This document shows, piece after piece, positions 54,379 through 54,987 of a stretch of 64,000 nucleotides of DNA. Source of the stretch: Escherichia coli (GTDB lineage: Bacteria > Pseudomonadota > Gammaproteobacteria > Enterobacterales > Enterobacteriaceae); assembly GCF_003334335.1 (NCBI RefSeq), contig NZ_QOWQ01000015.1; one strand, 5' to 3'. Position 1 is the stretch's first letter, and each line of letters starts with the position of its first letter. Under the pieces are notes generated by a model, which worked only from the letters and a program-made list of their open reading frames with translations, ran no database searches and had not been told where the DNA came from. A program made the position numbers and the translations under genes.

Positions 54379-54987
54379 TTACCACGAAAACAGCGGCCAT
54401 TCTTTGGCGACCGTGGTGAGTTGTGGCGCATCGAAAACGGCTTGTGGCGAGACCACCGTTTCCTCAAGCGGAATATTCTTGCCGTAACGTTCTTTGAGCT
54501 TTGCCTGAACTTGTGGGCTGCTCAGGTCGAACTCTTTCAACTTCTGCTGCTCGCCCACGCGCATTCCCAGCGCGTTCTGGTAAACCTTCCACACCACTTC
54601 CGAACAGTACTGGCGATCGTCGCTCCATGAGAAGCTGAAATCATACGGTTTACCGAGATAACGTTTTGCCGTTTGCGCCAGTTTTTGCTGTTGTTCAACA
54701 CTCAGTCCGCCTTCAACGCGGCGAACAACGTATTTGCCCTTTTCACCATGGGCGATCCACTGCTTGAGCGGGGTGTATTTCACCGGGCCGACTGCTTCAA
54801 AAACGTAGGGCTTTTTGTTGCGTATCACCAGCATACCGGTGTGGCTATAATCGGTATGGGTCGCCAGTTGGATCGCTTTACTTTGCGATGAGCGAGAGAT
54901 CTGAAAGATGATGTCGCCGGTTTGTGGCTGCCAGGCAAAGGCAGGTACAGAAACCAGCAGGCTGAGGATCAGCAGCCTGTTTTTCAT
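54379..54987 (-). CDS. yiiX: Secreted predicted hydrolase YiiX (permuted papain-fold / NlpC-P60-like, DUF830)
   Basis: ORF track, 202 aa; signal peptide MKNRLLILSLLVSVPAFA; His (YSHTGM) precedes Cys (RQYCSEV), consistent with a permuted catalytic dyad. Confidence 0.85.
   Translation of the reverse strand: MKNRLLILSLLVSVPAFAWQPQTGDIIFQISRSSQSKAIQLATHTDYSHTGMLVIRNKKPYVFEAVGPVKYTPLKQWIAHGEKGKYVVRRVEGGLSVEQQQKLAQTAKRYLGKPYDFSFSWSDDRQYCSEVVWKVYQNALGMRVGEQQKLKEFDLSSPQVQAKLKERYGKNIPLEETVVSPQAVFDAPQLTTVAKEWPLFSW

Follow-up and report, generated by a model that had tools for sequence, protein, structure and literature searches.

The gene yiiX lies within the 64,000-nucleotide stretch of Escherichia coli DNA analysed here (assembly GCF_003334335.1, contig NZ_QOWQ01000015.1; called the window below), and it is a core gene of this species that is already well annotated. 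We consider that its product, YiiX, is probably a soluble periplasmic thiol acyl-hydrolase, which acts on amide- or ester-linked envelope lipids or lipidated peptides through an acyl-Cys128 thioester. The gene, its fold, its permuted catalytic triad and its bound lipid had all been published or annotated before; the observation is correct but ordinary, as it repeats the standard annotation and a structural paper of 2011, and by itself it matters little. On the other hand, YiiX is a universally conserved E. coli enzyme that is expressed and, by prediction, exported; its structure is solved and shows a bound lipid, and the remaining question is its natural substrate. It is the type member of its family, and among the relatives are phospholipase toxins, factors of lipoprotein N-acylation and the human PLAAT/LRAT enzymes. 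If the substrate were identified, thousands of genes would gain an annotation, and an unrecognised step of envelope-lipid or lipoprotein remodelling might come to light.

The original prediction claimed a 202-residue open reading frame (ORF) at positions 54379-54987 under the name yiiX. In the ORF list of the window it is present exactly there, on the minus strand, running from ATG to TAA:

54379-54987, minus strand: yiiX coding sequence (202 amino acids and stop), a YiiX-family permuted papain-like enzyme (ORF list, NF007458, PF05708, RefSeq).

The name is borne out by two sources that agree, the RefSeq annotation of identical DNA and the NCBIfam equivalog match. At this locus the DNA matches many E. 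coli chromosomes with 100% identity, and RefSeq labels the gene in them "yiiX: YiiX family permuted papain-like enzyme". On those chromosomes yiiX is flanked by rpmE and metJ, with priA, cytR and ftsN to one side and metB, metL and metF to the other. The protein matches the NCBIfam YiiX equivalog NF007458 with 354.8 bits (cutoff 216; E = 1e-106) over model positions 1-204 of 205, as a member of the YiiX orthologous group. It also matches the Pfam family PF05708 Peptidase_C92 (E = 3.3e-49), with residues 21-193 aligned to positions 2-165 of the 166 in the model. This family, the former DUF830 and MEROPS C92, is the YaeF/YiiX family, to which YiiX belongs. The match agrees with the predicted permuted NlpC/P60-like or DUF830 membership and places the protein in the permuted YaeF/YiiX branch of the NlpC/P60 superfamily. 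With E-values of 1e-106 in NCBIfam and 3e-49 in Pfam, yiiX is far from a chance ORF. The E. coli paralogues YebB (NF008547) and YaeF (NF008552) fall in the same Pfam family. YiiX scored 86 bits against the YebB model (cutoff 227) and 15.5 bits against the YaeF model (cutoff 279), which is far under both cutoffs, and therefore it represents a distinct orthologous group; the searched literature gives no function for YebB or YaeF. None of the PADLOC defence models matched YiiX, and no Rfam family was found within the coding sequence.

The active site can be read directly from the chain. The motif YSHTGM begins at residue 47 and RQYCSEV at residue 125, which gives His49 and Cys128 in the His-before-Cys order that had been claimed. 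Cys128 is the only cysteine in the protein, while histidines occur at positions 44, 49 and 80. The residue order is His49, Glu64, Tyr115 and Cys128, as verified at the codons, and this is the circularly permuted arrangement. The codons are listed below with the conservation of each residue in an alignment of YiiX with 128 near-full-length representatives at 38-55% identity (129 sequences in all):

54841-54843, minus strand: codon of His49, general base of the triad (His in 126/129; catalytic in 2IF6, Xu et al. 2011).
54796-54798, minus strand: codon of Glu64, third triad residue, which orients His49 (Glu in 128/129; Xu et al. 2011).
54643-54645, minus strand: codon of Tyr115, the oxyanion/P1-carbonyl tyrosine (Tyr in 127/129; Xu et al. 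2011).
54604-54606, minus strand: codon of Cys128, the nucleophile (Cys in 127/129; Xu et al. 2011).

PDB entry 2IF6, YiiX of E. coli O157:H7, covers residues 18-202 and is 98% identical to the window protein. It is the same protein with the same Cys128, His49, Glu64 and Tyr115, and in the mature region there are only four allelic differences (T45S, I55M, S157N and Q159L). The AlphaFold model of the window YiiX superposes on 2IF6 at 0.5-0.7 Å. After re-refinement of this structure, the Cys128/His49/Glu64 triad together with Tyr115 was described in the geometry of canonical NlpC/P60 enzymes (Xu et al. 2011, PMC3142127). YiiX is thus a papain-like fold with a Cys-His-polar triad placed as in the canonical enzymes. 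The original prediction had left the placement of the triad to a structure prediction, and a structure without a plausibly positioned Cys-His dyad would have counted against it; the existing crystal already shows the triad experimentally (PMC3142127), and the model agrees with it.

The same crystal provides the strongest clue to function. Inside a narrow hydrophobic S1 tunnel lies a fatty acid in a U shape, for which stearate was tentatively modelled; its head group forms a hydrogen bond to Tyr115 beside Cys128, and the S' side is open and hydrophilic (PMC3142127). The hydrophobic S1 pocket that fits a fatty-acyl chain was thus published for the 98%-identical protein (PMC3142127). Xu et al. 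judged the narrow S1 site unfit for a peptide, and they proposed that YiiX is an amidase that frees a fatty acid from an amino acid, a peptide or a protein (PMC3142127). The original prediction listed peptidoglycan, lipid and acyl-protein as candidate substrates. The fatty acid in the hydrophobic tunnel favours an acyl-lipid or acyl-peptide substrate over peptidoglycan, so the first of the three loses ground and the other two gain. The prediction also held that the substrate is not established, and this stands, as the searched literature gives no assignment.

YiiX is predicted to be exported through the Sec pathway, and the inference is well supported. In the N-terminal sequence MKNRLLILSLLVSVPAFA|WQPQ, K2 and R4 make up a basic n-region, the hydrophobic core reaches a Kyte-Doolittle 9-mer mean of 2.9, and A-x-A stands at positions -3/-1:

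54934-54987, minus strand: predicted Sec/signal peptidase I signal peptide MKNRLLILSLLVSVPAFA, codons 1-18, with cleavage before W19 (hydropathy and A-x-A rule).

The junction motif P-A-x-A|W/Y-x-P-Q is kept in enterobacterial YiiX orthologues, and the claimed signal peptide holds at the level of sequence. In the AlphaFold model, low values of the predicted local distance difference test occur only at residues 1-20 and at the extreme C-terminus, and the crystallised construct of 2IF6 starts at residue 18. The protein does not resemble a bacterial lipoprotein: the signal ends in AFA|W instead of a lipobox (L-[AS]-[GA]-C), and the sole cysteine is Cys128. Among the 129 aligned sequences, 122 have a hydrophobic N-terminal segment, 99 of them signal-peptide-like or membrane-anchor-like and 23 lipobox-like, and the YiiX family as a whole appears to be extracytoplasmic.

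The family is large and its catalytic residues hardly vary. An exhaustive phmmer search with YiiX over 1.84 billion cluster representatives returned 2225 representatives at E <= 1e-3, of which 302 were at E <= 1e-30; more than 2,000 clusters at 50% identity are distributed over many phyla. A genome scan for relatives gave at least 596 species-level matches, and among the matches listed are Enterobacterales, Burkholderiales, Lysobacterales, Moraxellaceae, Bacteroidota, Desulfobacterota and others. The four catalytic residues in the codon list are kept in 97.7-99.2% of the alignment, and a G24-D25 motif in essentially all of it. Within E. coli, the yiiX coding sequence is single-copy in 5425 of 5426 complete genomes. 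When compared with a divergent E. coli lineage, its nonsynonymous divergence (dN) is 0.017 and its synonymous divergence (dS) 0.22, with a dN/dS of about 0.08. yiiX is a core gene under purifying selection, and together with the near-invariant catalytic residues this is the pattern expected of an active enzyme.

We propose the following course of catalysis. After Sec export, YiiX would lose the 18-residue signal peptide to become a soluble periplasmic enzyme of about 21 kDa with the permuted NlpC/P60 fold. The long fatty-acyl chain of the substrate would enter the narrow hydrophobic S1 tunnel, and Cys128, activated by His49 that is oriented by Glu64, would attack the acyl carbonyl while Tyr115 stabilises the oxyanion. 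The polar leaving group would exit via the open hydrophilic S' side; for an amide it may be an amino acid, a peptide or the N-terminus of a lipoprotein, and for an ester a lysophospholipid or a glycerol head group. The fatty-acyl thioester left on Cys128 would then be hydrolysed by water to a free fatty acid. By this mechanism YiiX would release fatty acids from envelope lipids or lipidated peptides, as a fatty-acyl amidase or esterase, and would not be a peptidoglycan peptidase. The acyl-enzyme chemistry, the choice of hydrolysis over transfer and the class of substrate are our inferences.

Several points weigh against this proposal. The searched literature reports no enzymatic activity for YiiX or for any YaeF/YiiX-family protein, and no YiiX phenotype or activity that settles the substrate. 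The ligand of 2IF6 was read from electron density and only tentatively modelled as stearate (PMC3142127), and it may represent either a reaction product or a lipid picked up by chance from the expression host. Amide and ester cleavage, and likewise hydrolysis and acyl transfer, are indistinguishable from the sequence and the fold, as close fold relatives do both. Export, too, is a prediction. Finally, the genomic context gives almost no functional support, since the neighbourhood is not conserved across phyla.

For the neighbourhood we analysed 80 loci from other species. No neighbour of yiiX was conserved across phyla in them, which is a weak negative for the high-GC loci because greedy ORF calling is unreliable there. 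Adjacency to metJ/metB was found in 10 of the 80 loci, all Enterobacteriaceae. Recurrent short-chain dehydrogenase/reductase, AlkB-like and TamB-like neighbours were considered as functional links and rejected, being confined to narrow clades or generic. Seven loci, from Budviciaceae (Leminorella, Budvicia) and from Enterobacillus (Hafniaceae), have the yiiX orthologue beside a phospholipid-synthesis cluster similar to ynbABCD. The two are divergently adjacent in Budviciaceae, and small ORFs intervene in Enterobacillus. The cluster encodes a CDP-alcohol phosphatidyltransferase (CDP-OH_P_transf), a CdsA-like cytidylyltransferase (CTP_transf_1) and a PlsC-type acyltransferase, and further a Hydrolase_4+Methyltransf_20 fusion and a DSPc phosphatase. 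This adjacency is a weak, clade-limited hint of a connection with lipids, and its confinement to two related enterobacterial families is a further point against the proposed function. RtcB and an RF-1-like gene also lie downstream at these Budviciaceae and Enterobacillus loci.

A different outcome of the same chemistry is possible, though we regard it as clearly less probable: YiiX may be an acyltransferase, in which the acyl group passes from the Cys128 thioester to an amine or hydroxyl acceptor instead of to water. The acceptor might be a lipoprotein N-terminus, a lysine, a lysophospholipid or another lipid, and the models for such a reaction are LRAT/PLAAT, the RID lysine N-epsilon-fatty-acyltransferase of Vibrio MARTX toxins and LnsA of Staphylococcus aureus. 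The fold neighbours of YiiX, with their scores, include a Euglena complex-I accessory subunit (8.7), the type VI secretion system (T6SS) effector TseH (8.7), human PLAAT4 (8.5), MepS (6.3, with 66 aligned residues), the MARTX RID fatty-acyltransferase domain (6.1), PPPDE2 (5.6) and CLN5 (4.4). PLAAT/HRASLS and LRAT are eukaryotic permuted NlpC/P60 phospholipase A1/2-acyltransferases, cytosolic or membrane-anchored, whereas YiiX has a Sec signal and a long helical insertion that makes a closed tunnel; a Pfam scan of YiiX gave no LRAT match. Tox-Act1 and TseH are T6SS-delivered toxins that carry permuted NlpC/P60 domains and have cognate immunity genes. Tox-Act1 is a Cys-dependent phosphatidylglycerol/phosphatidylethanolamine phospholipase with toxicity restricted to the periplasm (PMC12994826). 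Unlike these toxins, yiiX belongs to the housekeeping core genes and encodes a Sec signal of its own, and no immunity-like gene adjoining it was seen in the E. coli annotation. LnsA, for which YiiX is the best HHpred homologue, is needed for lipoprotein N-acylation in S. aureus (PMC7387801), and RID N-epsilon-fatty-acylates host proteins. The published activities of Tox-Act1, LnsA and RID all concern fatty-acyl linkages. Several points speak against the transfer reaction itself: the identity of YiiX to the model acyltransferases is only about 11-21%, the free fatty acid in the 2IF6 crystal is the expected product of hydrolysis, and no LnsB-equivalent partner or conserved neighbour gene was found in the 80 loci. 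Moreover, the N-acylation of lipoproteins in E. coli is already carried out by Lnt.

The older default annotation makes YiiX a periplasmic peptidoglycan hydrolase, that is, a murein peptide amidase or endopeptidase like MepS, and we consider this improbable. Membership in the NlpC/P60 superfamily and the predicted export to the peptidoglycan compartment speak for it, as do the database names "putative peptidoglycan peptidase" and "distant relative of cell wall-associated hydrolases". In Bacillus subtilis, the family member YycO is listed as a candidate wall hydrolase whose activity is not determined (PMC10653849). MepS/Spr and the canonical NlpC/P60 peptidoglycan endopeptidases share with YiiX the papain-like core, a Cys/His/polar triad with Tyr, and the envelope location. 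YiiX is not a canonical member of that group, as His precedes Cys and the Pfam scan found no NLPC_P60 match, and the structural alignment with MepS is restricted to a 66-residue core. The hydrophobic pocket and the lack of wall-binding domains also tell against a peptidoglycan substrate. Within the YaeF/YiiX family, BcPPNE of Bacillus cereus (PDB 3KW0) is about 20% identical to YiiX. It was described as likely cytoplasmic and in a closed conformation with a restrictive S1' site that holds a bound lysine, while YiiX is predicted to be exported and has an open conformation and a more spacious S' site. That YiiX is mainly a non-catalytic periplasmic lipid carrier with a vestigial or regulatory triad is very improbable, as the four catalytic residues are kept throughout the alignment under purifying selection, even though lipid binding in 2IF6 is the only direct observation and the searched literature reports no activity.

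The proposed acyl-hydrolase is probably expressed by read-through transcription from metJ. The relevant features are as follows:

55171-55488, minus strand: metJ, the same-strand gene directly upstream of yiiX (annotation).
54988-55170, minus strand: metJ-yiiX spacer of 183 nt (promoter scan, met-box scan, inverted repeats, Rfam).
54106-54318, plus strand: rpmE, convergent with yiiX.
54332-54358, no strand assigned: putative bidirectional intrinsic terminator, an A6-GCGCC-GCAC-GGCGC-T7 hairpin in the 60-nt rpmE-yiiX spacer (sequence, folding).

The promoter scan found no sigma-70-like match in the metJ-yiiX spacer (54988-55170). The spacer also has no met box, and yiiX thus lacks the tandem AGACGTCT repeats of its own that define the MetJ regulon. 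The met-box scan scored 2-4 tandem boxes; a stricter 16-mer double-box search with at most 3 mismatches missed even the known metJ/metB operator. Tandem degenerate met boxes (3-4 repeats resembling AGACGTCT) were found only at 55662-55701, in the divergent metJ/metB control region, and at 59628-59660, upstream of metF. In published data, yiiX belongs to the 17-gene MetJ iModulon with a MetJ site confirmed by chromatin immunoprecipitation with exonuclease digestion (ChIP-exo) (iModulonDB 2.0, PMC11701608). The gene (b3937) was expressed in all seven conditions of a directional RNA sequencing study (PMC3734233), and a meta-analysis placed it among genes upregulated under several stresses (PMC9501238). 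Since yiiX lacks met boxes, its place in the MetJ iModulon is likely due to transcripts that run on from metJ. The metJ promoters would supply most of the yiiX transcription by (partial) read-through, in E. coli as well as its close relatives, and these transcripts would end at the terminator shared with rpmE.

A bacterial interspersed mosaic element (BIME) of two inverted repetitive extragenic palindromic (REP) sequences, at about 55042-55141, fills most of the spacer, with naRNA4/ES036 REP-type matches in Rfam. An E. coli genome carries some 39 copies of its sequence. Strain S1-ZIM-01-A has a spacer of just 59 nt (locus positions 2942-3000), which forms a terminator-like hairpin of -19.8 kcal/mol with an A-rich tract, a GC stem and T7. 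Judging from this short spacer, the BIME of the window apparently interrupts that hairpin within the loop of the metJ terminator. The terminator-like hairpin in strains without the REP element weighs against our account of transcription, since read-through may be limited there. It was also found that at least 80% of the 1.3-kb yiiX region is covered in only 3244 of the 5426 E. coli genomes, which probably reflects REP polymorphism.

At the other end, the claim that yiiX converges on rpmE and shares its terminator is upheld for the orientation and made plausible for the terminator. The hairpin at 54332-54358 folds on both strands, with -28.6 and -19 kcal/mol (z = -5.2 and -2.5). Each strand reads as a GC hairpin followed by a U-run, which fits a shared bidirectional intrinsic terminator. 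It was missed by a consensus terminator scanner because the A and T tracts pair and absorb the T-run into the stem.

The metJ linkage could also be functional. Under methionine limitation, when MetJ is derepressed, periplasmic YiiX might de-acylate N-fatty-acylated amino compounds, and the homoserine- or methionine-type moieties set free in this way would feed the methionine pathway and its transporters. The substrates may then be N-acyl-homoserine lactones of neighbouring bacteria, lipoamino acids of the N-acyl-methionine type, or lipoprotein or lipopeptide N-termini. We think there is very little chance that this is so. The reported co-expression (PMC11701608) is its sole support; the adjacency to metJ is restricted to Enterobacteriaceae, and the family occurs widely among taxa that showed no metJ neighbour in the 80 loci. 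If true, YiiX would be the first characterised bacterial enzyme of the YaeF/YiiX family and a new arm of the methionine regulon.

Regarding variation within the species, 42% of the E. coli genomes carry yiiX at 90-95% nucleotide identity. The idea that yiiX is unusually divergent was rejected, since its dS of 0.22 equals that of the neighbour priA (0.23) and its dN/dS is 0.08; yiiX is therefore not unusually variable. The window allele has Thr45 (codon 54853-54855), while 42 of the 43 other 202-residue orthologue cluster representatives have Ser and one has Ile at this position; Ser also occurs in about 95% of distant family members. Thr45 is four residues ahead of the catalytic His49, and the substitution is conservative. 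Database forms of 264, 280 and 299 residues were considered as alternative architectures and rejected. The rare 264- and 299-residue forms arise by stop-loss or frameshift read-through into the rpmE antisense strand, and the 280-residue form has an internal duplication of about 78 residues from residue 92 that takes in the Cys128 region. Errors of sequencing or assembly, or rare mutations, probably account for all of these long forms. In E. coli GDG24A39-1PT (locus positions 3610-6609), the DNA downstream of yiiX consists of IS1 fragments and an rhsC element instead of rpmE, and an IS1/Rhs-associated rearrangement interrupts the usual yiiX-rpmE junction.

Two observations concern the region beyond rpmE. 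The Rfam leader L31-Gammaproteobacteria (RF03157) was found on the plus strand at 54047-54099, directly upstream of rpmE, with 60.1 bits against a gathering score of 33.2. The mechanically called priA ORF at 51705-53975 (minus strand) has 756 amino acids when compared with 732 (2199 nt) for priA in RefSeq, and the upstream in-frame ATG of this ORF is probably not the real start.
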